Of a stretch of DNA of 64,000 nucleotides, positions 25,731-61,198 are shown piece by piece; position 1 is the stretch's first letter; every line of letters starts with the position of its first letter. A program made the position numbers and the translations under genes. The DNA is taken from NCBI GenBank assembly GCA_964567265.1, contig CAZMLK010000001.1:395723-459722 (forward strand), written 5' to 3'. The DNA comes from an uncultured Candidatus Saccharibacteria bacterium (GTDB lineage: Bacteria; Patescibacteriota; Minisyncoccia; Phycocordibacterales; UBA12088). The notes under the pieces were generated by a model. It did not search any database, was not told the origin of the DNA, and saw only the letters and a list, made by a program, of their open reading frames with translations.

Positions 25731-25862
25731 GATAGTGATGACTCGTATGATAACGGATTCTTTCTAAAGGGATTATGAAGACAGAAGTGGGTTACCCCGG
25801 CCGAGCTGCCTGATTTTTGCTCGGGCACACAATACAACGTTTTTGAGGGATTGCATAGGAAA

Positions 25863-25891
25863 AGAGGCCGCGCGAAGCGCGGCCTCTTTTT
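25863..25891. terminator. bidirectional terminator downstream of the beta-helix gene
   Basis: AGAGGCCGCGC-gaa-GCGCGGCCTCT flanked by A and T runs. Confidence 0.8.
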
Positions 25892-25911
25892 GCTACATCG
25901 CACCAATCCAA

Positions 25912-28848: not shown

Positions 28849-28982
28849 GTAACAAATTCAATGAGTAAGCGTTTTGTATTCTCGAAGACGGATTTGAAAC
28901 GTAGTCATTGCCACTGATTCACTATACCAGCTGCATTACGACAGAGGTATTCCGAATGGGGATTACGGCGGAAAAAACGGAA

Positions 28983-29013
28983 AAAGGCGGCCGCGCTTCG
29001 CGCGGCCGCCTTT
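28983..29013 (-). terminator. rho-independent terminator of the 29023 gene
   Basis: Minus strand: AAAGGCGGCCGCG-cgaa-GCGCGGCCGCCTTT followed by TTCCGTTTTTT. Confidence 0.8.
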
Positions 29014-29022
29014 CGCCTCCAC

Positions 29023-44271: not shown

Positions 44272-45090
44272 TTACTGCGCGCTTGTCGAGGTCGCACCCG
44301 CGGGCGCGATTTCGACCGTACGGAGCTCGCGGATGTTGACGGGACTTTTCGCGAGCGCGGTCTCGAACGAATCAGCAGCCTTCGAGCGCAGCGCGCCGAC
44401 GAGCGCGACCAAGGAGCTCGTGATTCCAGGAAGCGCGATCGGAGAATTGGTAGCAGCGATCGTACCCCGCGGAAGCTGCACGATGAAATTCCCGCCGCCC
44501 TGCCCGATCAAGGAGACGGACACCGAGGTCGTCGCCTGGAGGATATCCGCGCTGGTGCTGACTCCGGGAGACGAATACAGCGTGACCCGCGCACGGCTCG
44601 GCCCCACCTCTTCGACCGTGCCGAGCGCGAGCGCGCCGTAGGCGTACACCTTGTCCCCTTTCCGGATGCCACTCTCCTGCCCCGCGTCGATGACGAGCGA
44701 ATCATACGGAATCTCGGGCGGCCGGAGCAGGATGCCCGCGCGGATGCGCGCCCTCTCGGGATTGCGTCCCGCGAATGCGCGCAGGGACTCGTTTTCAGCC
44801 TCAAGAAGTGTCATCGCGACGCTTTTCGCGTTTGCATCGCGGAGTTCCTGCTTCAGCGCGGCATTCTCGTCAACGAGCGCGCGCTTGGAGCGGAGGAGCT
44901 CGATGACGGTACCCGATGACGCGACCGTGCCCGATTCTATCGATGCGACCGGGCGGAGCACGCCGAACACGAGGTTCTCGAGGAACGCCGGCGGCTTCGC
45001 GAAGAAGAAAAGCGCAACGACCAAAAGCGCTCCCATCACTGCGAGCTTGTAGCGGCTGAATGCTGTTTTACGTTCCTGGAGAGAGCGCAT
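44272..45090 (-). CDS. mreC: rod shape-determining protein MreC
   Basis: N-terminal TM helix, coiled coil (LKQELRDANAK), and beta-barrel repeats (GIRKGD.V, GLIGQ-like). Position after mreB. Confidence 0.85.
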   Translation of the reverse strand: MRSLQERKTAFSRYKLAVMGALLVVALFFFAKPPAFLENLVFGVLRPVASIESGTVASSGTVIELLRSKRALVDENAALKQELRDANAKSVAMTLLEAENESLRAFAGRNPERARIRAGILLRPPEIPYDSLVIDAGQESGIRKGDKVYAYGALALGTVEEVGPSRARVTLYSSPGVSTSADILQATTSVSVSLIGQGGGNFIVQLPRGTIAATNSPIALPGITSSLVALVGALRSKAADSFETALAKSPVNIRELRTVEIAPAGATSTSAQ

Positions 45091-46141
45091 CTTCGCTTTC
45101 TATGAGCACGTCCGTATGCTGGTCGAGGGTTTCAATGATAACACCGGTTCCGCGCACGACGGAGGTCAACGGATCGTTCGAGCGGTACACCGGGATCTTG
45201 AGGATCGCCGTCAAAAATTCGGGCATGCCGCGGATGAGCGCGCCGCCGCCGACCAAGTGGATGCCGCGCTGCATCACGTCCGCCAGGACTTCAGGCGGCG
45301 TGGTCTCGAGGACCTCGCGGACGGATTCGACCAAGGTATCGATGGAATGGGAAATCGCTTCGCGGATATCGGCGTCTGTAATGACGACCTCACGCGGGAG
45401 GCCGGTCACGAGATCGCGGCCGCGTACGGTCGCTTCGATCGGCGCATCGCCCGGAGATACGGAACAAGCAGCAATCTTGAGCTCCTCCGAGGTCTTCTCG
45501 CCGATCAATATCTTGAATTCGCTCCGGATGTAGGAGGCGATGTCGGCATTCAGCTTGTCGCCCGCGACGCGGAGATTCTTCGCGCGCACGATGCCGGAAA
45601 GCGAGATGACGGCGATATCGGTCGTGCCGCCGCCGATGTCTATGATCATGCTGCCGATCGGCGCATGGATCGGCAGCTTGATGCCGATCGCGGCAGCCAT
45701 CGGCTCCTCGACGATGTAGACCTCGCGGGCGCCGGCATTCTTCGCTGCATCGCGGACCGCCCGCGTCTCGACGTTCGTGATGCCAGACGGCACGCCGATG
45801 ACGACGCGCGGGCCGAAGATCGTGCGGCGTCCTTCCTGCGCTTTGTTGAGGAGGTATGAAAGCATCTCTTCGGTGACCTCGAAGTCCGAGATCACGCCAT
45901 CAACGAGAGGGCGGACGGCCGTGATGTGGGTCGGCGTGCGGCCGAGCATGTCCTTCGCCTGCGCTCCGACGGCGACCACCTGGCCCGTCTTCTGGTTGAT
46001 GGCGACGACGGAGGGCTCATTGAGGACGATGCCCTTGCCGCGAACATACACGAGCGTGTTCGCCGTGCCGAGATCGATGCCGATGTCATTCGAGAAGAGG
46101 TGCGAGAACCTCCCGAACATTTTTTTGAGTCTTTCTACCAT
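45068..46141 (-). CDS. mreB: rod shape-determining protein MreB
   Basis: IGIDLGTANTLVYVRGKGIVLNEPSVVA, DIGGGTTD and GGGALIRG, the actin/MreB fold motifs. Confidence 0.95.
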   Translation of the reverse strand: MVERLKKMFGRFSHLFSNDIGIDLGTANTLVYVRGKGIVLNEPSVVAINQKTGQVVAVGAQAKDMLGRTPTHITAVRPLVDGVISDFEVTEEMLSYLLNKAQEGRRTIFGPRVVIGVPSGITNVETRAVRDAAKNAGAREVYIVEEPMAAAIGIKLPIHAPIGSMIIDIGGGTTDIAVISLSGIVRAKNLRVAGDKLNADIASYIRSEFKILIGEKTSEELKIAACSVSPGDAPIEATVRGRDLVTGLPREVVITDADIREAISHSIDTLVESVREVLETTPPEVLADVMQRGIHLVGGGALIRGMPEFLTAILKIPVYRSNDPLTSVVRGTGVIIETLDQHTDVLIESEDALSPGT

Positions 46142-50312: not shown

Positions 50313-51023
50313 CTACTGTTCAAAAAACGGACAGATGAGCGCGACATATTCGAGGAGGATCTTCGGCGAGGCGCCCGGGTCGGAGATGTGGCGCTTCGCG
50401 AGCATGACGGCTTCCAGCGTTTCCTGGAGCGCTTGGCTCGGGACCCCCCCGCTCGCCGCGAGGCGGATCCTCGCGGCGAGCGCCTGCTCAAGTCCGCCGA
50501 GGAAATCGACTGCGTGCGATCGGTCCTTCGTATCCGAAATCGTACCGAGGAGCTTCTTCAACTTGTCGAGGCGATTTGCAGGAGTGAGTGCAAGAAATTG
50601 CATTGCCGCTTCCGTGTCGCTGACATGCGGCATCGAAATGATCTGCATGCGCGAGCGGATGGTCGGGAGGACAAGGTCGGCGTTCGGGACGAGGAGAAAA
50701 AAATGAAGGCCCTGTGGCGGCTCTTCGAGGATCTTGAGGAGCGCGTTCTGCGCCTGCGCCGTCAGGATCTTCGCGCCGATCACGAACACGCGCCGCGCTC
50801 CGAGGGGGCGAATATATGCATCTTCCTTGAGTTCCCTGCTTTCTTCAACGCTCAGGGTCTCGAACATGCGGCCATAGTAATCGGGATTTCCAATGACAGA
50901 GCCCTTCAGGACCTCCTCGACGAAGGAAATGACGAGGGGCTCGTTGACCATAAGATCGCCCGGCACCAAGTACGCATGATGCAAGCTGCCTGTTTCCCGA
51001 TACTGCTTTCGAAGCTGCTCCAT
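50313..51023 (-). CDS. holB: DNA polymerase III delta-prime subunit-like (clamp loader AAA+ without intact P-loop)
   Basis: GSLHHAYLV.G ... NALLKILEEPP.G..FFLL ... LPTIRSR. Start at MEQLRKQ, with TATGCT 9 nt upstream. Confidence 0.7.
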   Translation of the reverse strand: MEQLRKQYRETGSLHHAYLVPGDLMVNEPLVISFVEEVLKGSVIGNPDYYGRMFETLSVEESRELKEDAYIRPLGARRVFVIGAKILTAQAQNALLKILEEPPQGLHFFLLVPNADLVLPTIRSRMQIISMPHVSDTEAAMQFLALTPANRLDKLKKLLGTISDTKDRSHAVDFLGGLEQALAARIRLAASGGVPSQALQETLEAVMLAKRHISDPGASPKILLEYVALICPFFEQ

Positions 51024-51118
51024 TACCGCTCCAGCATACTGGAGATATGCACTTTGCTGAAATTGACACACTTCATGAAAGTTGTATGTTGAAGAGAGCA
51101 CATGAAAGGAGTTGCGAC

Positions 51119-51256
51119 ATGTCCGCAGCTACGAGTCATCAGATCGGGGTCCCCGTTGGACAGCCGATCGCGAGTTCCGTGAACGACCTGGCAGTATTTC
51201 TCGTCGTCGCGGGTATAGTCGGCAGCATTGCACTCCTGTTCTTCGGCGTCAAATAA
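51119..51256 (+). CDS. 45-aa tail-anchored membrane micro-protein
   Basis: AAAGGAG RBS 7 nt before the ATG. MSAATSHQIGVPVGQPIASSVNDLAVFLVVAGIVGSIALLFFGVK. A 15-bp hairpin follows. Confidence 0.5.
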   Translation: MSAATSHQIGVPVGQPIASSVNDLAVFLVVAGIVGSIALLFFGVK

Positions 51257-51267
51257 CGACGCAGTAT

Positions 51268-51300
51268 TCGGCACGGATTCCCTTCGGGAATCCGTGCCGA
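51268..51300 (+). terminator. hairpin terminator
   Basis: 15-bp stem TCGGCACGGATTCCC-ttc-GGGAATCCGTGCCGA. The T-tract is weak. Confidence 0.6.
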
Positions 51301-51398
51301 AATTATTATCGCGGAACTCTCGCCATGCGCGCGCATTTACAAAAATGAATTTTAAGCATCTAATGTCAGCAGAACATCGCTCTTGAGAGGGGCCGTTG

Positions 51399-51938
51399 AT
51401 GCCGCATACCCCGGTGAATGCAAGCGTTCCTGCAATCTATTACGGCGAGCAGTATGCAATTGAAAGGATCGTGGATGCACGCAAAGTCGAGCGTGACATT
51501 TTCAGGAGGCGTGTGGGCGGGATGATCGTCGAACCTACGGACGGGACCCTGTTCCAGTTGCTCACTCCGAATGCCGCATGGCAACATCCGGAGCGTCCTT
51601 TTTCGCTTCGGGAGTGCCTGACATTCCGGAGCGTGCCCGCATGGGACCCCTCTGATCCAGGGGGCAACCCGATCCGAGGCTTCGTTCGAGCCAATAGAAC
51701 GGAGTGGGAAGATCATATCTCTTCAGGGGCCATCCCGCTCGGGCATTTCTTGGGCGCGATCGTAGTGCCGATCCTCCCCGCCAAAGCTGGCGGAACGCCT
51801 GACCTGCTCACGACGCCTTCGATTCCCCAAAAAACAAGGAATGCCGGCGTCGACCCGGCATGGAGGGCTAGAGTCGGGTGCGCGATCATCGTCGCACTCC
51901 TTCTCTTTTACCTACTGAACCTCTTGCCCAAAAGTTAA
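51399..51938 (+). CDS. hypothetical protein with C-terminal TM anchor (179 aa)
   Basis: GAGAGGGG RBS 6 nt before the ATG. C-terminal VGCAIIVALLLFYLLNLL. Terminator downstream. No recognised motif. Confidence 0.5.
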   Translation: MPHTPVNASVPAIYYGEQYAIERIVDARKVERDIFRRRVGGMIVEPTDGTLFQLLTPNAAWQHPERPFSLRECLTFRSVPAWDPSDPGGNPIRGFVRANRTEWEDHISSGAIPLGHFLGAIVVPILPAKAGGTPDLLTTPSIPQKTRNAGVDPAWRARVGCAIIVALLLFYLLNLLPKS

Positions 51939-51968
51939 ACCCCGCACATCCATGCGGGGTTCTTTCTT
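51939..51968 (+). terminator. rho-independent terminator
   Basis: ACCCCGCA-catcca-TGCGGGGT followed by TCTTTCTTAT. Confidence 0.75.
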
Positions 51969-54777
51969 ATATGATTTTCGGAGGCGATACTGGAAGCGTC
52001 GACTCCTTGCGGTAGCGCGCGAGGATATCTTCCTCCACGAGCGAGCGCGCCTTTCCATATTTGAGATATGAGAGCTGCTTCAGCGCTTCCGCATTCTCAG
52101 GATTCCCCGCCTTCGGTGCCATTGTCCTGATATTGAACGGCTTTGCCGGCCTCCCTTCAGCGAGAATCTTGAGGTACGCGTTCCGGTTGTCGATATTCAT
52201 GATGTCGCTCGCAGCGAAGGTCGGCGCGAACTGCGGCTCGAAGAATTTCGCATCCTCGGCGCCGACGCGGAACACCGCCATCGATCCGACGTTGCCGAAG
52301 ATCGAATCCCGGATGCCCTCCTGGAGCTGCGCGATGAACTGGTGCGCCACCGTGAGCCCGAGCTTGTACTTGCGCGCTTCGGAAAGGATGGTCGAGATGG
52401 AATCGGTGGTGACATTCTGGAATTCGTCGATATAGAGATAGAACGGCGGCATCTCCTTCCCACTGCCGAACGCGTCCACGCGCGAGAGCGCTGCCATGAG
52501 GATCTTGCCGACCAGGATGAGGCCGAGGAGATTCGCGTTGATGTCGCCGAGCCGGCCCTTCGAGAGGTTCACGAGGAGGATCTTCTTCGAATCCATCACC
52601 TCGCGGAAATTGAACGCGGATTTTTCCTGCGCGATGATCGGGCGCATGTACTCGTTCGCGGTGAAGACATCGAACTTGTTCGTGATATACGGCACGATGT
52701 TCGCGAGCGATGCTTCCCCCTGTGCCTTCGTGGCGATCTCCTGCCAGAACTGGAGGACGACCGGGTTCTTGCAGTGTGAGAGCTTGAGCGCGCGATACTT
52801 CGCGTCCGCGAGGACGCGGGACACATCGAGCAAGGTCATGCCGCTCTCGGGGTGCTCGAGGACGAGCAGCGTCGCGTTGCGGAAATACTGCTCGAATGCA
52901 GGGCCCATCGACTCGGGAGAGCCGGCGTACAACTTCTTGAAGATGCTGAAAAGCTCATTGACCACGAAGGTCTTCTGTTCCGGGAACCGGGGATCGTATT
53001 CGAGCATGTTGAGGCCCATCACGCGCTCCATGTATGCGGGATCGAAGTAGATGACGTCTTCCGCGCGCTCGGGCGGGATCGCGGCGAGGATATCCTGCAC
53101 ATCGCTACCATGCGGATCGATGAAACAGACGCCTGCGCCCTCCTCTATGTCCTGGATGATCATGTTCTTGAGGAGCGTCGTCTTACCGGTACCCGTCTGC
53201 CCGATCACGTAGAAATGTCGGAGGCGATCCTCTGGCGCGAGATACGCTTTCGTTTCCGCATTACGGAATGAATTGATGCCGAGAAGCGTCCCCGTTGCTG
53301 AGAGCCCGAGCGGCGGCGGCGCGTCAGCGGATTTCGACTGCCGGAATTCGGGCGAGGATTTCACGACGCCTGTCGGGAAGTGGAGCACAGTCGCAAGCTC
53401 GCGGAGCGAAAACGGGAACGATTCGGCGGCGCCGAAATCACGGAAGGTGAAGCGTGTCAGGAGCGCACGAAGCGCGCCGCCCGTCGCCCGTACGAATTCG
53501 AAGCGATTGCCATCCGCATGATGGAATTGATGGAAGCTCGATTCGATGTCGCGAAGGATGCCTTCAGCGCGCGCCTGGTCAGTCGCGGATACCACGATGC
53601 GGACATTGACCGGCACAATGAAGGATTCCCTCTTTTTCCTGATCGCTTCAAGGGCGACCTTGTCGACAATCTTTTCCTCAGGCGCCTCTTTTGCTTCAGC
53701 CGGCTTCGAGGAGAGGAGTGCGCCTTTGAGCGCGCCGCCGATCGCGAATGCGGCACTTCCGAGAAGGCTCGATTCGACTTCGCGATACACGATCTTTGGC
53801 TTCTCACCCTTCTCGATACGCTTCTCGATGCGGAGGTAGCGCCCGAGATAATCGTCACGGCCAGGTCGGATCACGAACTGGATCGACGCACCTGCTCCCT
53901 CCTTCTCGATTTTCGAGAACGCATTCAAAAGCACTGAGAGCGGATCGACATCAAATGCATCGTAGGTTTTTATCGGATAGATCGGGAGTTCTGCAAGGCG
54001 CGCGGTCGAAGCCAGTGTCACGCCGTTCTCTACGAAGATGTTGTAGTCGCCTTTTTCCTCGCGGAGATGCGCATGCGGGAAGAGCGACAAGAGCTGCTTC
54101 TCGAACAGCTCTGCCTTGGTGGTCGGCACCGATACATAGAAGACGATTTCCTGGCTTGCTGATGAAACGGCGACTTCGAAGACGAAGACCTCGCCGGTGT
54201 CATTCTCGCGAGATCCCGTGCCGAAGAGTCCCGAATAGAATTGTTCCATCACAGAGACCAGCTCCTTGATGGTCTTCCGCTTCGCGCTTCCGGCATCCTC
54301 ATCCTGATTGATGGAAGGCAGTGTCACTTCGTACAAGGTCATGTTGAGCTCGCGCCAGACCGGCTCATTTTCCTTCACCCCCGGCACTGGATATCCGGCA
54401 TGGATGTATTGCACGAGGACGCGGTGGAAATCGTCGGCGATATGCGGGCTATCCATGCGGTCAGCGACCGTGAGCGCATTCTTGAGTCCCTTGTCGCGCA
54501 TGACGCCAAGAAGCTCGCCCATGATGGCGTCGTCCTTCTCAGGCGGCAGGTCGAGGATGATGTCATCCACTTGCTCGGCAGTGAGGATGCGTTCCTGTGG
54601 GAGCACTGATTCCGAAAGCGCGCGTCGGTATTCCTCGATATGCGCGCTTGTTGCCGCTTCCTTGGAGACCGGATAGCCGATTTCTGCCATGGCACGCTCC
54701 TTCTCCGCGATCTGGCCGCGCAGATACTGAATCTCCTCCTCAGGAGAGGAGAATTTCTCGTTCACTGGGAATTCCAT
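51967..54777 (-). CDS. VirD4/TraD-like (type IV coupling protein family) P-loop NTPase with a ~480-aa soluble N-terminal domain and no TM segments
   Basis: HFYVIGQTGTGKTTLL (Walker A), CFIDPHGSD, FYLYIDEFQNV (Walker B), RKYKLGLTVAHQFIAQL. These resemble the TrwB/TraD/VirD4 ATPase core. The N-terminal half has no motif I recognise. Confidence 0.75.
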   Translation of the reverse strand: MEFPVNEKFSSPEEEIQYLRGQIAEKERAMAEIGYPVSKEAATSAHIEEYRRALSESVLPQERILTAEQVDDIILDLPPEKDDAIMGELLGVMRDKGLKNALTVADRMDSPHIADDFHRVLVQYIHAGYPVPGVKENEPVWRELNMTLYEVTLPSINQDEDAGSAKRKTIKELVSVMEQFYSGLFGTGSRENDTGEVFVFEVAVSSASQEIVFYVSVPTTKAELFEKQLLSLFPHAHLREEKGDYNIFVENGVTLASTARLAELPIYPIKTYDAFDVDPLSVLLNAFSKIEKEGAGASIQFVIRPGRDDYLGRYLRIEKRIEKGEKPKIVYREVESSLLGSAAFAIGGALKGALLSSKPAEAKEAPEEKIVDKVALEAIRKKRESFIVPVNVRIVVSATDQARAEGILRDIESSFHQFHHADGNRFEFVRATGGALRALLTRFTFRDFGAAESFPFSLRELATVLHFPTGVVKSSPEFRQSKSADAPPPLGLSATGTLLGINSFRNAETKAYLAPEDRLRHFYVIGQTGTGKTTLLKNMIIQDIEEGAGVCFIDPHGSDVQDILAAIPPERAEDVIYFDPAYMERVMGLNMLEYDPRFPEQKTFVVNELFSIFKKLYAGSPESMGPAFEQYFRNATLLVLEHPESGMTLLDVSRVLADAKYRALKLSHCKNPVVLQFWQEIATKAQGEASLANIVPYITNKFDVFTANEYMRPIIAQEKSAFNFREVMDSKKILLVNLSKGRLGDINANLLGLILVGKILMAALSRVDAFGSGKEMPPFYLYIDEFQNVTTDSISTILSEARKYKLGLTVAHQFIAQLQEGIRDSIFGNVGSMAVFRVGAEDAKFFEPQFAPTFAASDIMNIDNRNAYLKILAEGRPAKPFNIRTMAPKAGNPENAEALKQLSYLKYGKARSLVEEDILARYRKESTLPVSPPKII

Positions 54778-54785
54778 GTGCGTCT

Positions 54786-54791
54786 ATTATA
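54786..54791 (-). promoter_or_regulatory. -10 box of the VirD4-like ATPase gene (leaderless-type)
   Basis: Minus strand: TATAAT-8 nt-ATG. Confidence 0.5.
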
Positions 54792-54825
54792 GTACGCCGC
54801 GCGCCGTCGGCGCGCGGCGGTTTGT

Positions 54826-54876
54826 GAATAGCAAGAAAGAAGCGGCCGGCATTCGCCAAAAAGGCGAATGCCGGCC
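54826..54876 (-). terminator. rho-independent terminator of the 54884 gene
   Basis: Minus strand: 14-bp stem GGCCGGCATTCGCC-ttttt-GGCGAATGCCGGCC followed by GCTTCTTTCTT. Confidence 0.75.
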
Positions 54877-54883
54877 AGAGCTG

Positions 54884-55519
54884 CTAGCGATGTCTGTCGA
54901 AGCGCGCGTCGCCAGTATCATGCGCGATAAAGAATGCGGTGTGGTTGCCGAAGAGGCATTCGCCCAACTCTCCCAGCTCCGGAATGCGCGGACGCTGGAT
55001 TGTGTAGAAGGGATCGATACCATACCGATGACGAGTCACCTTCCCTCCCGTTACCTCAAGCGCTCGCGCTACCGCATCCCATACGTGCTGCGGCACGCCC
55101 GGGTCAAGATAGTTGAGTGCCGGTACCGCTTCAGCTCTCCACCAATCGGGCCCATGTTTCGTATCGGGATGGAAAATCATCAGCTGTCGGTTGTAGATCT
55201 GGAACCCGACGAAACTGACGCACACAACCCCCACCCATCCTACGGCCGTCATGGCCGGACCCCAGGATGCGAAGATAAGGAACAGCGATGCAAGCATCAG
55301 CCACGCGAGTACTGGCCGATTGAGGTGCGCGCGGAGCAGAAATGCACCATATCGACTTTGCATCTTCGAGTACATGAAGCCCCGGCAGCAGTCACCGCGC
55401 ATGACATTGAGGCCCTGTGCCGATATGCAGGCATCGAATGCACTTCGCGTAAATAGCGAAAAGGATGGAAACCGAGGAATTGAGTCTCCGAGCAGTCTAG
55501 TGGCGATGGCGGCGGTCAT
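54884..55519 (-). CDS. hypothetical membrane protein (2 TM helices plus a ~110-aa C-terminal domain)
   Basis: GGGAGGG RBS 7 nt before MTAAIATRLL. TM helices VLAWLMLASLFLIFASW and AVGWVGVVCVSFVGFQIY. No recognised motif. Confidence 0.5.
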   Translation of the reverse strand: MTAAIATRLLGDSIPRFPSFSLFTRSAFDACISAQGLNVMRGDCCRGFMYSKMQSRYGAFLLRAHLNRPVLAWLMLASLFLIFASWGPAMTAVGWVGVVCVSFVGFQIYNRQLMIFHPDTKHGPDWWRAEAVPALNYLDPGVPQHVWDAVARALEVTGGKVTRHRYGIDPFYTIQRPRIPELGELGECLFGNHTAFFIAHDTGDARFDRHR

Positions 55520-55618
55520 GAATAGACCCTCCCAACGTGTCGAAGGCGTCTGCCTTCGATTCCATATATAAAAATGAGGCACGAGGTGCCCTGAGTCAAG
55601 CAACGCGCAGCCTATGAG

Positions 55619-56632
55619 CTACCGCTTCGCGATGATGCTCTTCTTGTAGACGTCGAGATGGTTGAGCGCGATGCCGGTCCCCTTCACCACGCAATACGGG
55701 GCCTCTTTCGCAAGAACCGCCTTCACGCCCGTGCGACGGAGCACGAGTTCCGGGAAATTGCGAAGCTGCGAGGTGCCGCCGGTCATGATGATGCCCTTGT
55801 CGATGATGTCGGAGGCAAGCTCGGGCGGCGTCTCCTGGAGCACATCCTTGATCGCCTTGATCATTTCCCGCAAGTCGCGCGCGGTCGCTTTCACGATCTC
55901 ATTCGTCTTCACTTCTGCAGTGCGCGGAAGGCCGGTCAAGAGATCCCGGCCGCGGATCGACATGATGAGTTCCTCTTCAAGAGGGACGGCCGAGCCGACC
56001 TCGATCTTTATGCGCTCAGCGGTCTTGTCGCCGATCGCGAGATTGAAGGTCTTCTTCACATAATCGGTGATCGCATGATCGAGGCGGTTCCCGGCGCATT
56101 TCACGGACGTCGAGGCGACGATGCCGCCGAGCGAGATCACGGCGACGTCGATCGTGCCGCCGCCGATGTCGACGATCATATGCCCACGCGGCTCATGGAT
56201 CGGAATGCCGGCGCCGATTGCCGCAAGAATCGGTTCCTTGACCACGTACGCATTCTTCGCACCCGCGTTCACTGCGGCTTCGACGACGGCGCGGCGCTCG
56301 GTCGAAGTGACGCCCGCTGGAACCGAGATCATCACGTCCGGGCGGAACAGCGTCCACTTCCCCATCGATTTGCGGATATAGTAGCGGAGCATCGCTTCGG
56401 TGACGCGATAATCGGCGATGACGCCATCTTTCATCGGGCGGTACGCGATGATCGATTCCGGAGTGCGTCCGATCATCTCCTTCGCGTCGTTGCCGACCGC
56501 GAGGATCTTGTTGTCGCTGACGGAGACGGCGACCACCGACGGCTCATTGAGCACGATGCCCGCGCCCGGCACGAAGACGAGTGTCGTCGTGGTCCCGAGG
56601 TCGATCCCGATTTTCTTGGTGAAAAATGACAT
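55619..56632 (-). CDS. second MreB-like actin-family protein (paralog)
   Basis: KIGIDLGTTTTLVFVPGAGIVLNEPSVVAV, DIGGGTID and MTGGTSQLRN. Start at the internal ATG of track ORF 55619..56719. Confidence 0.85.
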   Translation of the reverse strand: MSFFTKKIGIDLGTTTTLVFVPGAGIVLNEPSVVAVSVSDNKILAVGNDAKEMIGRTPESIIAYRPMKDGVIADYRVTEAMLRYYIRKSMGKWTLFRPDVMISVPAGVTSTERRAVVEAAVNAGAKNAYVVKEPILAAIGAGIPIHEPRGHMIVDIGGGTIDVAVISLGGIVASTSVKCAGNRLDHAITDYVKKTFNLAIGDKTAERIKIEVGSAVPLEEELIMSIRGRDLLTGLPRTAEVKTNEIVKATARDLREMIKAIKDVLQETPPELASDIIDKGIIMTGGTSQLRNFPELVLRRTGVKAVLAKEAPYCVVKGTGIALNHLDVYKKSIIAKR

Positions 56633-56677
56633 GGTGTCGCCTAGGCAGTATACCTGCTTGCGCTTTGCTGGTCGTTG

Positions 56678-56706
56678 TTGACATATTGGACTTAATATGT
56701 TTTTAT
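56678..56706 (+). promoter_or_regulatory. sigma70-like promoter of the 56737 gene
   Basis: TTGACA-17 nt-TTTTAT, then AGGAGG 7 nt before the TTG start. Confidence 0.4.
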
Positions 56707-56736
56707 ATCTCTCAGACAAACACAGGAGGACCTCCC

Positions 56737-57033
56737 TTGCCTAGAAATCTTGTTGCGTACATAGCAATAATCGGGGATCCGGCTCGCAAAACCGTTCGGA
56801 AGCATCAATTACCAGATACAGATACCTACTATGCTGAGGATCTCGTCGGAGAGATATTCCGTATCCCTCTTACGACCGCTGAATATGTAGTCAGTGTTGG
56901 TAATGCGCAGATGAACTATTGGCAATCCAGTCTTCACAAGACTGGAGAATTATGTTCAGGCATCCCGTGGGATATTATTGCGAGGGAAATTCTTTTGTTT
57001 CGCGACCCGAAAAATAGACCCGAGCGCCTATAA
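56737..57033 (+). CDS. hypothetical small protein (98 aa, TTG start)
   Basis: AGGAGG RBS and a terminator homologous to that of the next gene. AT-richer. No recognised motif. Confidence 0.45.
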   Translation: MPRNLVAYIAIIGDPARKTVRKHQLPDTDTYYAEDLVGEIFRIPLTTAEYVVSVGNAQMNYWQSSLHKTGELCSGIPWDIIAREILLFRDPKNRPERL

Positions 57034-57076
57034 CTCCGACGGAAGCTCCGGCTTTCGGTCGGGGTTTCTGTTTTTG
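57034..57076 (+). terminator. rho-independent terminator (repeat family copy 1)
   Basis: TAACTCCGACGGAAGCTCCGGCTTTCGGTCGGGGTTTCTGTTTTT. Confidence 0.7.
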
Positions 57077-57146
57077 GCGGCACATCCTTGACTTTATATT
57101 TGCGGATTGTACTGTTCTTTTAGAAATCCTTGGAGAGGAGAATGTC

Positions 57147-57680
57147 TTGAGACCACGTCTGCAAATAGTAGATATAGGGAATCGGACGCACGCGACGATC
57201 ATAGCGGAAGCACGACGATTGTCGGTAGGCGTGGAGATGCGCGGCAAGGAGCGGACAGCATTTGTTGGCATCGAATTCGATCTCGGAACGCTTACGATGC
57301 TTTCTCCCTTGTTCCGGCACATGGACACTCTCGGGGACGAGCCGAGAGTTTATGTCTTCAATGAGCACCTTGAAGCACCAGATCTCTGCGTCATTTTTTT
57401 GACGCACACGACTGGCACCAAACTCTTAGAGGAGATCATGGGTCGAAACGACCTTGCAGGGTTTCAATCACCCCCAGATACGACAATCTTTGCGACCGCG
57501 GAGGCAAACATCCCGATGGCGGGGTCACTTGATGACTTCCTCGCAATCTATGCTGGCAGAGGATTTGCGAAAGTACTGATCCTCGAATCACTTGATCGGG
57601 TGTCCGAGCGCGTACCCTTCTACACGTTCCCTACAGCGCCCGTATCCAGACGCAACCCCCTGGATGAAATGAAAACCTAA
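57147..57680 (+). CDS. hypothetical protein (177 aa, TTG start)
   Basis: GGAGAGGAG RBS and a terminator. No recognised motif. Confidence 0.5.
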   Translation: MRPRLQIVDIGNRTHATIIAEARRLSVGVEMRGKERTAFVGIEFDLGTLTMLSPLFRHMDTLGDEPRVYVFNEHLEAPDLCVIFLTHTTGTKLLEEIMGRNDLAGFQSPPDTTIFATAEANIPMAGSLDDFLAIYAGRGFAKVLILESLDRVSERVPFYTFPTAPVSRRNPLDEMKT

Positions 57681-57719
57681 CCCCGACGAAGCCCCGGCTT
57701 CGTCGGGGTTTCTCTTTTC
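57681..57719. terminator. bidirectional terminator (repeat family copy 2)
   Basis: CCCCGACGAAGC-cccg-GCTTCGTCGGGG followed by TTTCTCTTTT. Confidence 0.8.
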
Positions 57720-57724
57720 AAGAG

Positions 57725-58000
57725 CTATTCAATCGGGTCGACCGTGTCCACAAGCGCGGCTTCAAGGCTTACGATGCGCTCCCACGCATCCTTGTTACTC
57801 GCGGAGAGCGCGAGCATCTTCGCGGCGAAGGTCGCCTGGATGAACGGGATCACCCATGGATCCTTCTCGAACAGGTCCTTGAGGTGATCGAGCGTCTCGG
57901 CATCCTGTCCTGATTTGATCAACTCGAAGAGCATCTCCTTCTCATCCTCAAGGAGCGGGGATGTATCAATTGATTTCTTGATAGAGTCCAGCGTTTTCAT
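57725..58000 (-). CDS. hypothetical helical protein, module gene B copy 1 (91 aa)
   Basis: Paralog of 58746..59015. Shared motifs are IKKSID.S.LL..EKE, a central PW, and AAK.LA. Confidence 0.5.
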   Translation of the reverse strand: MKTLDSIKKSIDTSPLLEDEKEMLFELIKSGQDAETLDHLKDLFEKDPWVIPFIQATFAAKMLALSASNKDAWERIVSLEAALVDTVDPIE

Positions 58001-58006
58001 ACAGTG

Positions 58007-58336
58007 CTATTGGAAATCAGCCGCGTTGATTTCGAGAGATTGCTCGCCTCCGAGCTTGGCAGCGACGAGCGATACCGGGTTCCCGTCCGCGTCGACGACG
58101 TAAGTAATCGTGACTTCGCGCCCCCCGTACGTGACGACACGCTCCGCGGTCTCTCTGCCGAACTCGAATCCACTGCTCCGCTCTGCTGCAGGAGCCGTGA
58201 GCGCCCGAAGGAGCGAGGTGAGTGCTGCGCGTTCAGGCTCGCCTTCATGCAACCCGAGCACTTCTGCTTCCGCGACCTCAAGCATGGCGGGGTCGAATTC
58301 GTTTGAATATGGGATTCCCTCTTTCATAGCGGACAT
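58007..58336 (-). CDS. hypothetical protein, module gene A copy 1 (109 aa)
   Basis: Paralog of 59029..59508. Shares the N-terminal M.EGIP and a C-terminal V..T......D..G...V......L....AA.F pattern. Preceded by a TTGCAG-N17-TAGTAT promoter. Confidence 0.5.
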   Translation of the reverse strand: MSAMKEGIPYSNEFDPAMLEVAEAEVLGLHEGEPERAALTSLLRALTAPAAERSSGFEFGRETAERVVTYGGREVTITYVVDADGNPVSLVAAKLGGEQSLEINAADFQ

Positions 58337-58353
58337 AGTACCAGTATCTCGGA

Positions 58354-58382
58354 ATACTAGCGAACCGGATTTTCACCTGCAA
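58354..58382 (-). promoter_or_regulatory. sigma70-like promoter of the A1-B1 module
   Basis: Minus strand: TTGCAG-17 nt-TAGTAT. Confidence 0.5.
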
Positions 58383-58407
58383 GGTTCATGAAAAAAGCGC
58401 GGCCGGA

Positions 58408-58436
58408 TTGACAGCACTCTTGAAAAACGTTTTTAT
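58408..58436 (+). promoter_or_regulatory. sigma70-like promoter of the 58469 gene
   Basis: TTGACA-17 nt-TTTTAT, then GGAGGAGG before the ATG. Confidence 0.45.
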
Positions 58437-58468
58437 CGCATATGGAACTTGTACGGAGGAGGTGTGTA

Positions 58469-58687
58469 ATGCGAATCCACGAACTGCCGGTGCCGACAAC
58501 TCCACATGTAGACACTATTCCCTCATCGGATTGTGGTCCTGGCGACGACGAAGGCTTGCTACGCCGGGATCCGAGCCAGTGCGATCATCTCTGGATACCA
58601 ACCACCGACGACGGCACGGAAGGCTGCCCGTTCTGCAGTTCTCAGAGGCGTGGAGAGCCGGTGATGGAAGTGCCCGACGAGAGATAG
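58469..58687 (+). CDS. hypothetical small Cys-rich (zinc-ribbon-like) protein (72 aa)
   Basis: GGAGGAGG RBS. Cysteines at SDCGPG, SQCDH and GCPFC. Terminator downstream. Confidence 0.45.
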   Translation: MRIHELPVPTTPHVDTIPSSDCGPGDDEGLLRRDPSQCDHLWIPTTDDGTEGCPFCSSQRRGEPVMEVPDER

Positions 58688-58706
58688 AGAGTATTCGAGG
58701 ACCATT

Positions 58707-58737
58707 CACCGCTCCCAGGGGGCGGTGTTTTCTTTTT
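58707..58737 (+). terminator. rho-independent terminator
   Basis: CACCGC-tcccagggg-GCGGTG followed by TTTTCTTTTT. Confidence 0.7.
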
Positions 58738-58745
58738 GGAAAATG

Positions 58746-59015
58746 TTATTCGATGCTCGCGACCAGGTTCCGCTCGAATTCGAGGATGCGCATGAGCGCG
58801 TCGGAGTTCTCGTTCTCGATCGCAAGCGACTTCGCGGCGAGCGTCATGAACAGGGTCGAGACCATCCACGGATGCGCTTCGAGAAGTGCGGCGAGATCGG
58901 CGAGATACGTCTCTTCCAAATCGCCTTCAGTGAGCGCGACCAGCAAGGCCTCCTTCTCGTGCGGCAGGAGCTGCGACTCGTCTATGCTTTTCTTGATGCG
59001 TGCCTTTGGTTCCAT
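58746..59015 (-). CDS. hypothetical helical protein, module gene B copy 2 (89 aa)
   Basis: MEPKARIKKSIDESQLLPHEKEALL ... HPWMV ... LAAKSLA. Start could instead be 59045. Confidence 0.5.
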   Translation of the reverse strand: MEPKARIKKSIDESQLLPHEKEALLVALTEGDLEETYLADLAALLEAHPWMVSTLFMTLAAKSLAIENENSDALMRILEFERNLVASIE

Positions 59016-59028
59016 GCAAATGTTGCCC

Positions 59029-59508
59029 TTAGACGAATGCAGCAAGATCGAGGACCATGTCCGGCATACCCACGCGCTTCACGACAATCTTCTCCGTCGC
59101 TTCGCCGCCGTCATCGGAAGCGAGCACGGTATGCTCGACCTGCGTTCCATCTTGATATTCCTGCTCGAGCGCGCTGTGGCGCTGATTGCCACCACCAAAC
59201 GCTTTCCTCAGTACGGGCGCGAGATTGATGCGGGTTGTCCTTCCGGGAATGTAATTCGGATTCTCCTTGTAATGCGTCACTGCTGGGCGGGATTCGAACG
59301 AGGATTTATATTCCACATGCATGCCGGTGCAGGCGCTGGTCATGAGCGCGAGCGCGCCAGCTGCCGCCAGCTTCAGCTTTGAATTGCCATGTTCCGCGAG
59401 ATTGGCCTCGCCTTCTGAAAAGTGCGCGAACGATTCCGTGAACGGACCTCTCTCGACATCAGACACTTCCGCTTCAATCGGTATTTCGTTTGGGATCCCT
59501 TCGTGCAT
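59029..59508 (-). CDS. hypothetical protein, module gene A copy 2 (159 aa) with an internal lipobox-like segment
   Basis: MHEGIPNEIP ... KLKLAAAGALALMTSAC ... VLDLAAFV. Starts 13 nt after the murA stop, with CATAAT overlapping that stop. Confidence 0.5.
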   Translation of the reverse strand: MHEGIPNEIPIEAEVSDVERGPFTESFAHFSEGEANLAEHGNSKLKLAAAGALALMTSACTGMHVEYKSSFESRPAVTHYKENPNYIPGRTTRINLAPVLRKAFGGGNQRHSALEQEYQDGTQVEHTVLASDDGGEATEKIVVKRVGMPDMVLDLAAFV

Positions 59509-59521
59509 GATGTGTTCTCAA

Positions 59522-60826
59522 TTATGCGCACATCCTCGTGCGTTCTATATGAACGCCGATCGATCGGAGGCGTGCCTCGATGTTCGCGTATCCTCGGTCG
59601 ATGAAGTACGCGTTATTAATAGTCGAATTCCCTTTCGCTATGATACCGGCGATCAGGAACGCGAGTCCAGCGCGGATGTCCGGGCCGTCGACTTCCCTTC
59701 CCTTAAGGAGCGTTGGGCCCTTCACGGTCGCGCGGTGCGCATCCCATACCTTTATGTCGGCGCCCATGTGGACCAGATCCTGCGCGTAGTTGAGGCGATT
59801 CTCGTAGATCGTCTCGAACACCAGCCCCTCGCCGCTCGACTGCGTGAGGAACACCGTCATCGGCGCCTGGAGGTCGGTCGGGAATCCCGGATACTCATGC
59901 GTTTTCAAATCGAAGGAAGTAAAGTCCGAATTCGCAATCTTCCCGTTCCCGCTAATCTGAATGAAGTCGGCACCAATCTCCATCGGGACGCTGGCACTCT
60001 GGAGTGTCCGAATCACGCTCCACGCGTGATTCGGATTGCAGTTCGAAATCCGAAGATTGTCGGCCGCAAGCGCACCGAGGACGAGGAAGCTCCCCAGCTC
60101 AATGCGATCAGGAATAATGCGGTACTGCTTTCCCTCCGATTTCAGAAGCGCGCCGCCTTCGATCTCGATGGTCGGCGAACCAGCGCCGGTGATCTTGGCG
60201 CCACAGGAGTTCAGAAATTCAGCGAGGTCGGCAATCTCCGGCTCCATCGCCGCATTCCGAAGCGTGGTCTTCCCTTCTGCGAGCACTGCGGCAAGCATGA
60301 GCGCTTCGGTTGCGGTTACGCTCATTACCGTAAAAAATATATCAGCTCCGCGGAGCTTGCCGTCTTTCGCGGCAATCTCGTAGTGAGAATCATGTGTGGT
60401 AATCGTCGCACCCATCGCTTTGTACGCGGACAGGAAGAGATCGATCGGCCGCGGACCGATGACACACCCGCCTGGATGTGGAAAAGAGACTTTGCCGAAG
60501 CGGCCAAGAAGGGGTCCGGTCAAGATCACAGAAGCGCGCATGCGCTTGGCGGCGTCCGCATCGATGACGGTCTCGAACAAATCCTCCGTTGCAACCTCGA
60601 TGGTATCTCCCGATTGCGTGGTTCCTGCGCCGAGCTTTTCAAGAATCTCTCCCATCCGCTTCACATCCTCGATTACGGGAACATTCGTGAGTGTGAGCGT
60701 GTCCGAAAAAACGATTGCTGAAGCGAGCGCCGGAAGTACCGAATTCTTTGCGCCGCCGATCACCACTTCACCGGATAGGGTCTTCTCACCACCGAGGCCA
60801 GTGATATGGAATGATTCTTTGTTCAT
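59522..60826 (-). CDS. murA: UDP-N-acetylglucosamine 1-carboxyvinyltransferase
   Basis: GGAKNSVLP, the catalytic-loop region (PGGCVIGPRPIDL), and DIRAGLAFLIAG. Start at the internal ATG (MNKESFHITG) of track ORF 59522..60922. Confidence 0.9.
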   Translation of the reverse strand: MNKESFHITGLGGEKTLSGEVVIGGAKNSVLPALASAIVFSDTLTLTNVPVIEDVKRMGEILEKLGAGTTQSGDTIEVATEDLFETVIDADAAKRMRASVILTGPLLGRFGKVSFPHPGGCVIGPRPIDLFLSAYKAMGATITTHDSHYEIAAKDGKLRGADIFFTVMSVTATEALMLAAVLAEGKTTLRNAAMEPEIADLAEFLNSCGAKITGAGSPTIEIEGGALLKSEGKQYRIIPDRIELGSFLVLGALAADNLRISNCNPNHAWSVIRTLQSASVPMEIGADFIQISGNGKIANSDFTSFDLKTHEYPGFPTDLQAPMTVFLTQSSGEGLVFETIYENRLNYAQDLVHMGADIKVWDAHRATVKGPTLLKGREVDGPDIRAGLAFLIAGIIAKGNSTINNAYFIDRGYANIEARLRSIGVHIERTRMCA

Positions 60827-61198
60827 GTCGGAACAATTGTACGGGCAGGCGAGACTTGGCACAAATCGCCCGCCGGTTGGGCCCTTGGCCCAACCGGCGG
60901 GCGTCCCTTGCACTATCCCCACACTTGTTGCCTAAACCGCTCTATGCTACATTGACGACGTAGCAGACAACGGAGGTATGCTCATTATGTTGAGCTTGCG
61001 GTCGACTTATCGTGCCGATACCCACCTCCCCTCGAAGGAGACCGATTTCGTCCAGGAAGCCCTGGATATTCCACCGAGAGACCCGCTCTTCGATCATCCA
61101 ATCGGCGATTAACGCTAATCGCCCCACGCCGACCCGCACTCGTGCGGGTCTCACCTAGAGGGTGAACGGGCTCTGTTTCTCCCCGTTCAAAGCCTTCG

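Follow-up and report, generated by a model that had tools for sequence, protein, structure and literature searches.

Does the interval between murA and holB encode one apparatus, or do accessory genes unrelated to one another simply lie together there? The sequence-only reading of the window (the whole stretch of DNA analysed, 64,000 nucleotides) had listed eleven genes without a housekeeping role here and had left room for either answer. The 8-kb interval is probably a patchwork on a housekeeping backbone rather than one molecular machine. Only in one lineage did two conserved core genes, mreB2 and a secretion-type ATPase gene, come to lie side by side, amid small membrane-protein and orphan genes that evolve fast (Table 1). 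The supposed lack of a housekeeping role is wrong for mreB2 and the ATPase, which are both class-conserved core genes. The genome itself is an ultra-small one (Patescibacteria).

Table 1 Features of the murA-holB interval (positions in the window; handles beginning with L denote loci of relatives)
Feature	Position	Strand	Basis
holB (DNA polymerase III delta'), backbone flank	50313..51101	-	matches DNA_pol3_delta2 genes of L081, L083, L166
45-aa tail-anchored peptide gene	51119..51256	+	codon score 0.24, TM residues 23-41
179-aa tail-anchored ORFan	51399..51938	+	TM at 160-178; 84% aa identity in L084
936-aa soluble P-loop ATPase	51967..54777	-	T4CP/TraD/TrwB profile matches
Strong intrinsic-terminator hairpin, 15-bp stem, between 2-TM and ATPase genes	54843..54877	-	terminator scan
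2-TM protein gene, 163 aa from MYSKMQ...	54884..55375	-	TM at 25-43, 49-67
mreB2, 337-aa MreB paralogue	55619..56632	-	Pfam MreB_Mbl, dN/dS 0.01, synteny
Conserved non-coding stretch upstream of mreB2	56633..57054		97% identity to L167
p177, species-level ORFan, 177 aa (or 147 aa from internal ATG 57237)	57147..57680	+	dN/dS 0.11
A1 (58007-58336, 109 aa, no signal segment) and B1 (57725-58000, 91 aa), 6-nt gap	57725..58336	-	selection, codon scores
72-aa four-Cys small protein gene	58469..58687	+	GGAGGAGG RBS; terminator 58707-58727
A2 (59029-59508, 159 aa) and B2 (58746-59015, 89 aa)	58746..59508	-	dN/dS 0.14 and 0.07
murA, backbone flank	59522..60922	-	66-72% identical to EPSP_synthase-family genes of L081, L083

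Native codon usage or purifying selection was seen for 11 of the 12 listed ORFs. The exception was a 135-aa plus-strand ORF (56626-57033), previously counted as an orphan gene, which is non-coding (codon score -0.16, dN/dS 3.7, substitutions 7/4/2 by codon position). The non-coding stretch upstream of mreB2 showed zero differences from L167 within 56633-56781; it had no Rfam match, and RNA folding was unconvincing (z -1.1 and -2.4). Rfam and tRNA scans of the whole region returned nothing. The other plus-strand orphan, p177, proved to be a gene (substitutions 23/17/75) with only two homologues among 5.8e9 proteins, and a bidirectional hairpin at 57679-57710 is common to it and B1.

An extremely constrained element of the backbone is the second MreB, which was correctly recognised from the sequence and is 43% identical to the mreB at 45068-46141. 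It matched MreB families full-length and above the curated cut-offs (PF06723, 1.2e-130, 435 bits vs 27; NF010539, 3e-132, 440 vs 293). In relatives it is 87-93% identical, where mreB1 is 62-88% identical and the ATPase only 61-62%. The mreB2 gene lies between murA and holB and not with mreC, mreD or pbp2; mreB1 (45068-46141) occupies the elongasome-type position, together with a PBP2-type gene (42259-43944) and an MreC gene assigned by synteny with L083. Among 21 informative metagenome loci with mreB2 orthologues (61-82% identical), holB followed mreB2 within 1.2 kb and with no ATPase in 17, and the ATPase was present in only two; murA adjoined mreB2 in many orthologue loci. These loci show that the ancestral order in this part of Paceibacteria was priA-murA-mreB2-holB-frr-rseP-(aa-tRNA synthetase)-mreB1-mreC-mreD-pbp2. 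The mreB2 gene is an old MreB paralogue tied to murA. The arrangement resembles the MreB/Mbl/MreBH sets of Firmicutes in that one of two paralogues (43% identical) sits in an mreBCD-pbp2 operon and the other elsewhere, beside murA; it differs in that mreB2 is more constrained than mreB1. An ultra-conserved second MreB linked to murA across the class is a useful by-product of the analysis.

The ATPase is likewise a core gene of the class Paceibacteria. Its family occurs in at least 574 GTDB species representatives (574 of 600 scanned matches) at 51-62% identity over the full length, and comprises 962 protein clusters; an exact look-up of the window protein gave no match. A helical N-terminus (residues 1-130) is followed by a DUF8128 domain (about 130-485) and then by a P-loop domain of T4CP/TrwB-like type that contains a helical insert (about 500-925); in this last domain, Walker A (GQTGTGKT, 526-533) and the DE of Walker B (D784-E785) are invariant. 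The DUF8128 domain has the VirB4 N-domain fold. The label "VirD4/TraD-like" fits the T4CP-like C-terminal half and not the N-terminal half, which has this VirB4-type fold and no TM anchor: a hydropathy scan found no TM in residues 1-500, the sole hydrophobic stretch (746-764) lies inside the NBD, and the model of the N-region is soluble, helical and alpha/beta. By profile, PF02534 was matched at 1.2e-5 (24.8 bits, cut-off 20.1), PF12696 and PF10412 barely over cut-off, and SXT_TraD at 4e-12, yet far under its curated cut-off. VirB4 family models were unmatched (TIGR00929, E 0.012, 13.8 bits vs 643; VirB4_plasma, E 0.0015, 16 bits vs 590; no CagE_TrbE_VirB Pfam match), and the protein was similar to HerA and the FtsK superfamily.

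The ATPase was also compared with characterised motors. TrwB was the sole PDB match by sequence (E 6e-4) and aligned with the ATPase model at a TM-score of 0.6-0.68. The TrwB/VirD4/TraD proteins (PDB 1e9r, 1gki) share a motor with Walker A and B and an inserted helical domain; the window ATPase differs in lacking an N-terminal TM segment and a relaxase/conjugation cluster, and in its extra 500-residue N-terminal region. VirB4/TrwK, the R388 T4SS ATPase (PDB 7o42, 8rtd), differs in its sequence, with about 10% identity and family HMMs far under cut-off; the window gene has no adjoining VirB3, VirB6 or VirB8 genes, and its motor sequence is closer to T4CPs. The orphan T4CPs of Patescibacteria (Microb Genom 2025, PMC12102498) are alike in their P-loop matches (T4SS-DNA_transf, TraG-D_C, TrwB_AAD_bind, TraD), in being far from any virB4 and near-universal in the phylum, and in having no relaxase nearby. 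That study detected homologues of VirD4-type T4CPs in 2,918 of its 3,035 Patescibacteria genomes (96%, vs 80% for VirB4), and only 148 of 5,713 homologues lay near virB4. The window ATPase family may be among those 5,713, for which the study gives no domain architecture; the window ATPase has DUF8128 and no N-terminal TM anchor.

Fold and literature together suggest that the ATPase would be a soluble, probably hexameric, NTP-driven translocation motor with a VirB4-type docking N-domain and a coupling-protein-type motor domain. It would most likely act in trans with a membrane complex encoded elsewhere, for which the simplest candidate may be the chromosomal, non-conjugative T4SS-like apparatus carried by most Patescibacteria, and its window neighbours are probably not its partners. 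Weighing against this account, a T4CP homologue in Southlakia epibionticum (class Saccharimonadia), which may or may not be of the DUF8128 family, was reported to be dispensable for epibiotic growth, and the T4SS genes to be essential (PMC12102498). The VirB4 N-domain fold of the uncharacterised DUF8128 domain, in a near-universal Paceibacteria ATPase, offers a concrete structural hypothesis for the "orphan T4CP" puzzle of Patescibacteria, namely a soluble motor that docks like VirB4. Literature searches on DUF8128 and on MreB paralogues in CPR gave nothing usable.

The genomic contexts of the ATPase often place it among housekeeping genes. Of 78 genome loci, 39 had Map or Ndk no more than three genes away, and SecY, Adk and ribosomal proteins lay upstream. 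No relaxase or T4SS cluster was linked to the ATPase in the 78 loci; its neighbours there were Map, Ndk, SecY, Adk, RNase J-like, YqeY, RmuC or orphans. MreB lay within 10 kb in only 7 of 80. No second VirB4/VirD4-like gene was present in the window, and virB3, virB6, virB8 and pilin Pfam families were found neither in the window region nor in the precomputed annotations of L081-L084 and L166-L169. Adjacency of mreB2 and the ATPase was seen in 14 loci and the window, and the mreB2 genes linked to the ATPase occupy a derived part of the mreB2 tree. The comparison shows that in a single clade, with Kaiserbacteria-labelled genomes among its members, the class-wide ATPase gene left its usual secY-adk-map or ndk surroundings for the gap between mreB2 and holB, where it has since been passed on vertically. 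Some selective linkage of the two genes within the clade is possible, because the adjacency persists though the ATPases are only 52-62% identical.

The small membrane-protein genes around this pair are real but evolve fast. The 45-aa peptide was confirmed, with a 10/12 sigma-70 match (51063-51090) and a 16-bp hairpin (51267-51301), and a homologue search found none. The 179-aa protein was also upheld (dN/dS 0.19 vs L084, substitutions 18/16/49 by codon position); it had no Pfam, NCBIfam, PADLOC or PHROG match, and its gene shares a hairpin (51938-51961) with the convergent ATPase gene. Homology of p180 to the tail-anchored MCRYSLEH protein of L083 and L166 was considered and rejected. TM prediction bore out the 2-TM protein, whose gene has a weak codon score (0.03). 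The segment that holds it (54877-55540) is unalignable between flanks that are 90-92% DNA-identical to L084 and L167, and the protein is only 26% identical between strains with 97% identical ATPases; the gene is a hypervariable or replaced cassette. A 2-TM or tail-anchored small membrane protein stands beside the ATPase in several, not all, of the mreB2-ATPase genomes.

In canonical systems, the VirB4-type N-domain binds the small hairpin-TM protein VirB3. The window recalls the VirB3-VirB4 pair in having a small hairpin-TM gene directly upstream of, and co-directional with, an ATPase gene whose product bears a VirB4-type N-domain. One could picture a lineage-specific apparatus of MreB2, small membrane protein and VirB4/T4CP-like ATPase in this clade, in which the ATPase N-domain would be tethered by the membrane protein in the way that VirB3 tethers VirB4, MreB2 filaments would position the complex, and A-B would be surface or substrate components. 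The mreB2-ATPase adjacency in 14 related loci and the window, the N-domain fold, the 2-TM hairpin gene that, in the window, L084 and L167, immediately precedes the ATPase gene and shares its strand, and the tail-anchored proteins at that place in L083 and L166 all speak for it. However, the genes are apart outside the clade, A-B is found elsewhere without mreB2 or the ATPase, and nothing lies between mreB2 and the ATPase in L041 and L072, while other relatives have unrelated proteins there, encoded on either strand. The 2-TM protein matches no VirB3, VirB6 or VirB8 profile and has no sequence similarity to VirB3; it is absent in most relatives, it diverges to a degree odd for an obligate partner, and a strong terminator separates its gene from that of the ATPase. 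Such an apparatus is unlikely. Its boldest form, in which the ATPase docks on a fast-diversifying VirB3-like hairpin protein and is positioned by MreB2 as a minimal cytoskeleton-guided translocation site for host-cell contact in this Paceibacteria clade, is very unlikely; if true, the membrane subunit would owe its hypervariability to an arms race fought at the cell surface. With the ATPase found by map or ndk, mreB2 with holB and no ATPase, and A-B elsewhere, the apparatus reading is therefore unsupported, and the collection allowed by the sequence-only reading comes closer, with the correction that the ATPase and mreB2 are core and not accessory. The scattering that it had named as evidence against a joint system was largely what was found, as the ATPase, mreB2 and B-family loci are mostly separate outside the clade.

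A less likely explanation is that the ATPase is not T4SS-related in function and was instead exapted for housekeeping translocation of DNA or nucleoprotein, such as chromosome segregation at division or DNA uptake. This would account for its ribosomal-operon and cell-wall/division contexts, and agrees with its housekeeping neighbours, its HerA and FtsK-superfamily similarity and the near-universal presence of T4CP homologues relative to VirB4; the authors of PMC12102498 themselves raised exaptation for the Patescibacteria homologues. Against it, a DNA-binding domain was not found in the ATPase, and the N-domain is specifically of the type seen in VirB4, where it docks onto membrane subunits of the T4SS. 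It is extremely improbable that the non-backbone genes (ATPase, membrane proteins, p177, A-B and the zinc-ribbon-like gene) are what is left of a mobile element, prophage or defence island inserted between murA and holB. The ATPase does match PADLOC mad8 (9.6e-14), HerA weakly and PHROG 5156 (1e-69), with distant homologues in Bacillus and Geobacillus phages; the codon scores of the tm gene, p177 and p180 are atypical, and a cassette has been replaced. However, the phage matches are just 20-25% identical, none of nine ATPase neighbours matches any PADLOC model, which leaves Mads and HerA-type systems without their partner genes, and an integrase, tRNA, flanking repeat and Rfam element are all absent from the region, as is the same block with att sites or integrase from all 170 loci examined. 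Throughout the class the ATPase shows vertical conservation in a ribosomal-operon context (codon score 0.34, native usage; dN/dS 0.02), and A-B has native codon usage (0.21-0.32) and lies directly behind murA in three genera.

The organisation of the interval accords with a patchwork. Almost every gene had been credited with its own promoter and hairpin terminator; terminators were enriched (18 found vs 7.5 +/- 2.9 in shuffles), with strong ones bounding most genes, whereas promoter-like sites did not exceed chance (7 vs 3.7 +/- 2.2). Among relatives, murA and holB lie as little as about 1.1 kb and as much as about 15 kb apart. The mreB2-holB and murA-mreB2 gaps are both expansion hot-spots with orphan content that differs in every genus; gap neighbours in L034, L041, L056, L072, L081, L083 and L166 were unrelated orphans with no Pfam matches. 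ORF calling in relatives was crude, and weakly conserved small partners may have escaped it. A conserved backbone interrupted by orphan-gene hot-spots is ordinary for a patescibacterial genome, and as a "system" the neighbourhood is of no importance.

The A-B genes, in contrast to the claim of a tandem duplicated module, are demonstrably duplicated only in part: B1 and B2 are paralogues (38-43% identical, E 1e-10 to 1e-14), whereas homology between A1 and A2 was undetected (BLASTP E 1.6), and these have in common only position, strand, spacing and terminal motifs. No DNA-level repeats were found between the copies, so the duplication is old. A1 and B1 are under purifying selection (dN/dS 0.05 and 0.01; codon scores 0.21 and 0.32), and B1 matched the B-family profile at E 6e-37. 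That profile collects 97 family representatives, nearly all of 85-100 aa and without a Pfam family match, and each B gene is preceded by an A-like gene, in contexts that include the position after fusA and near SHMT/dUTPase, with no ATPase or MreB. L083 and L166 carry one orthologous pair after murA; L165 and L167-169 carry two pairs. These loci show A-B to be a self-contained two-gene module, present at unrelated loci too and here anciently duplicated behind murA. A2, which starts 13 nt past the murA stop, has a polar N-extension and then a hydrophobic segment ending ...LMTSAC. Unusual extensions of this kind (25-45 aa) are shared by the A proteins of L083, L166 and L171, and A1 is without the segment. 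The SAC motif of the A family aligns and forms part of a putative lipobox, L-x-x-C (...LSAC in L083 and L166, ...LTSAC in L171, and in A2 with T at -3). A may be exported and lipid- or membrane-anchored on the cell surface, B would be its small acidic, cytoplasmic, helical partner, and the pair is possibly co-transcribed with murA in an envelope-related role. The c26 family, a 96-aa helical protein adjoining the ATPase in other clades, was rejected as a relative of B (hhalign probability 0.4%), and P0159, a 1217-aa protein matched by the B profile, was set aside for its eukaryote-like context. With about 100 family representatives, the putatively exported A and the 89-aa helical B constitute a previously uncurated two-gene module.

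The gene between the two A-B pairs had been called zinc-ribbon-like. It is real (dN/dS 0.26, substitutions 6/5/20), but the zinc ribbon did not stand: its 72-aa product has one CxxC only rather than two CxxC-type knuckles, and no Pfam match. A 48-aa minus-strand ORF opposite this gene was rejected, as substitutions land on its first codon position. All four cysteines (C-x16-C-x14-CxxC) and the -35 TTGACA are conserved in L167, and the protein could possibly bind a metal.

The window is part of a Patescibacteria (CPR) chromosome of the class Paceibacteria (~56% G+C), and the nearest relatives of its genes are found in 'Parcubacteria', 'Paceibacterota' and 'Kaiserbacteria' MAGs. Between holB (50313-51101, minus strand) and murA (59522-60922, minus strand), 11 real genes were supported by codon statistics, for which the long genes of the window served as training set, and by dN/dS against the close relatives L084 and L167 (~86-92% DNA-identical to the window). 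The inventory of the sequence-only reading was largely right, except for a plus-strand orphan at 56626-57033 that was rejected as non-coding (codon score -0.16, dN/dS 3.7, substitutions 7/4/2 by codon position). That reading had also given almost every gene its own promoter-like element and hairpin terminator; hairpin terminators were indeed above expectation (18 vs 7.5 +/- 2.9) and bound most genes, one with a 15-bp stem separating the gene for the two-transmembrane-segment (2-TM) protein from the ATPase gene, whereas promoter-like matches in the region showed no excess over chance.

Genes between holB and murA, with window positions and supporting evidence
Gene	Position	Strand	Evidence
45-aa tail-anchored peptide	51119-51256	+	codon score 0.24
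179-aa tail-anchored protein	51399-51938	+	dN/dS 0.19
936-aa ATPase	51967-54777	-	dN/dS 0.02
2-TM protein	54884-55375	-	TM scan
mreB2 (second MreB)	55619-56632	-	dN/dS 0.01
p177 (177-aa orphan)	57147-57680	+	dN/dS 0.11
B1 (small helical protein)	57725-58000	-	dN/dS 0.01
A1	58007-58336	-	dN/dS 0.05
72-aa four-Cys protein	58469-58687	+	dN/dS 0.26, GGAGGAGG RBS, terminator
B2 (small helical protein)	58746-59015	-	dN/dS 0.07
A2	59029-59508	-	dN/dS 0.14

An ATPase relative (full-length identity 51-57%) was encoded by 574 of 600 pattern hits among GTDB species representatives, and ATPase contexts were compared in 80 loci from such representatives. Using tblastn with all window proteins, MreB was found ≤10 kb from the ATPase in only 7/80 loci, and none of the window's small proteins was detected in them. 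Neighbours were clustered de novo and then confirmed with Pfam; the commonest context was L18-S5-L15-SecY-Adk-(UMP-kinase-like)-Map, then the ATPase, then Ndk-membrane protein-RNase J-like, with Map or Ndk ≤3 genes away in 39/78 loci, while a YqeY/RmuC context was seen in 7/78, and in 10/78 a pair of genes for a coiled-coil protein and a 96-aa helical protein. In another Paceibacteria clade this pair (the coiled-coil protein being 420-500 aa) flanks the ATPase on either side (L005, L012, L016, L039, L044, L066, L073 and others); it showed no relationship to the B family by hhalign, and could be a genuine ATPase partner module.

The contexts of mreB2 were taken from 80 metagenome loci around its relatives, 31 of which had orthologues 61-82% identical; of these 31, 21 extended far enough to be informative. 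In 17/21, holB lies ≤1.2 kb downstream of mreB2 and the ATPase is absent (it is present in 2/21). The backbone is therefore priA-murA-mreB2-holB-frr-rseP-tRNA synthetase-mreB1-mreC-mreD-pbp2, which is wholly housekeeping, and the class-wide linkage of mreB2 is to murA, not to the ATPase. The order mreB2-ATPase-holB was found in 14 loci besides the window (among them L007, L034, L041, L056, L068, L072, L081-L083, L099, L101, L166 and L167), and ATPase-linked mreB2 genes occupy a derived part of the mreB2 NJ tree, so the ATPase moved into the mreB2-holB gap in one clade and was inherited afterwards. Plain-backbone loci have about 1.1-1.7 kb between murA and holB, versus 5.7-15 kb in the derived clade, where the filling is genus-specific and without Pfam matches; the murA-mreB2 and mreB2-holB gaps are orphan-gene hot-spots.

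With MreB near the ATPase in so few loci and mreB2-holB usually lacking the ATPase, the proposal that these genes form an apparatus is unsupported. The alternative of unrelated accessory genes comes closest, except that the two best-annotated genes, the ATPase and mreB2, are core; as a neighbourhood, the region is unremarkable. That mreB2, a membrane protein and the ATPase are functionally coupled in this one clade is conceivable from the inherited gene order, but quite unlikely. The window is collinear with L084 and L167 (86-92% DNA identity) save for an unalignable stretch at 54877-55540, and the 2-TM products (163 and 170 aa), although alike in topology and in scattered motifs, reach only 26% identity. 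At the same position L083 and L166 encode an unrelated protein, tail-anchored and on the opposite strand, and L041 and L072 have no gene; the slot takes hypervariable surface genes and does not hold a conserved ATPase partner.

The C-terminal half of the ATPase (about 500-925) matches T4SS-DNA_transf, TraG-D_C, TrwB_AAD_bind and DUF87, with matches to the TraD and VirD4-like NCBIfams far under trusted cut-offs and TrwB as the sole PDB match by sequence. Across 40 homologues, neither Walker A (GQTGTGKT, 526-533) nor Walker B (D784-E785) varies. PF26449 (DUF8128), of which no mention was found in the literature, occupies the N-terminal half in 120/120 homologues among the matches listed. The full-length AlphaFold model (pLDDT 77.8) gave TrwK/VirB4 as best Foldseek match (E 6e-16, ~930 columns), followed by HerA, Cag-beta and TrwB (motor domain TM 0.6-0.68 to target), and a TM scan found no N-terminal TM segment. 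The ATPase is thus a soluble hybrid whose N-domain is of the VirB4 type and whose motor is of the T4CP type; it falls outside the T4CPs (no TM anchor, no relaxase or T4SS linkage) and outside VirB4 (family models far under cut-off, no adjoining virB3, virB6 or virB8). The most useful result is that DUF8128, the N-terminal domain of a nearly universal orphan ATPase, has a predicted VirB4-like fold.

In a published survey, 2,918/3,035 Patescibacteria genomes carry VirD4-type T4CP homologues (5,713 genes in total), only 148/5,713 lie near virB4, and exaptation cannot be excluded according to the authors (PMC12102498); the window ATPase fits this orphan-T4CP observation. It would act in trans as a hexameric translocation motor for a membrane complex whose genes lie elsewhere, the simplest candidate being the chromosomal T4SS-like apparatus. 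The main rival to a motor acting in trans is a housekeeping DNA translocase. Matches to PADLOC mad8 and, weakly, HerA, to PHROG 5156 (1e-69) and to Bacillus and Geobacillus phage proteins (20-25% identical) show that the ATPase has distant relatives in phages and defence systems; the region contains no genes for the partners that such systems have.

The mreB2 product is a bona fide MreB, 43% identical to that of mreB1 (45068-46141, in the mreBCD-pbp2 cluster), and is strikingly constrained: its identity is 93% in L083 and 87% in L081, compared with 61-62% for the ATPase and 66-72% for murA. The non-coding stretch upstream (56633-57054) is 97% identical to L167, with zero differences in 56633-56781; dS in the flanking genes is 0.4-1.0. 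It had no match in an Rfam scan and a plus-strand fold z of only -2.4, and may be a regulatory element or small RNA. A TATACT conserved in the window (56633-56660), L166 and L083 lies ~14 nt before the mreB2 ATG without a Shine-Dalgarno, suggesting a nearly leaderless mRNA.

The A-B module had been described as a tandem duplication, which holds for B1 and B2 (clear paralogues), whereas A1 and A2 resemble each other only in position and short terminal motifs. A word-indexed search gave only six B proteins; a full hmmsearch with a six-sequence profile gave 97 among 1.84 billion representatives, nearly all 85-100 aa with end-to-end matches and none belonging to a Pfam family. In every readable context B is preceded by a co-directional small A-like protein with a polar N-extension, a hydrophobic segment often ending in a lipobox-like ...L(T/S)SAC, and a C-domain rich in Thr and Gly. 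Since the contexts vary (murA-A-B in L083 and L166, fusA-A-B in L170, A-A-B between SHMT and dUTPase genes in L171, a 103-aa protein then B in L172), A-B is an autonomous pair, doubled in the window's species (L165, L167-169). The first copy begins 13 nt past murA, suggesting a murA-A2-B2 operon; although A1 no longer has the hydrophobic segment, it is still strongly constrained. In L172 (3580-5222 and 7636-8242) an A-like/B pair has four T4SS_pilin (PF18895) genes in tandem ~3 kb away.

The priA-mreB2 slot is occupied either by a murA on the same strand (47-72% identity with the window gene; L041, L056, L068, L072, L085, L086, L101, L109, L110) or by an opposite-strand EPSP-synthase-family gene (only 26-31%; L034, L083, L090, L091), a pattern that resembles replacement in situ by a distant paralogue. 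Against L167, murA (59515-60714) is a mosaic, 65-83% nt identical in the 5′ two-thirds and 91-98% at the 3′ end, suggesting recombination within the gene. Elsewhere, 20023-22734 encodes a P-type cation ATPase, and 23325-30603 three large surface-type proteins: one with a GDSL lipase and SKICH-like repeats, another with a beta-helix, an Ig-like domain and a peptidoglycan-binding domain, and a third that is SKICH-like.
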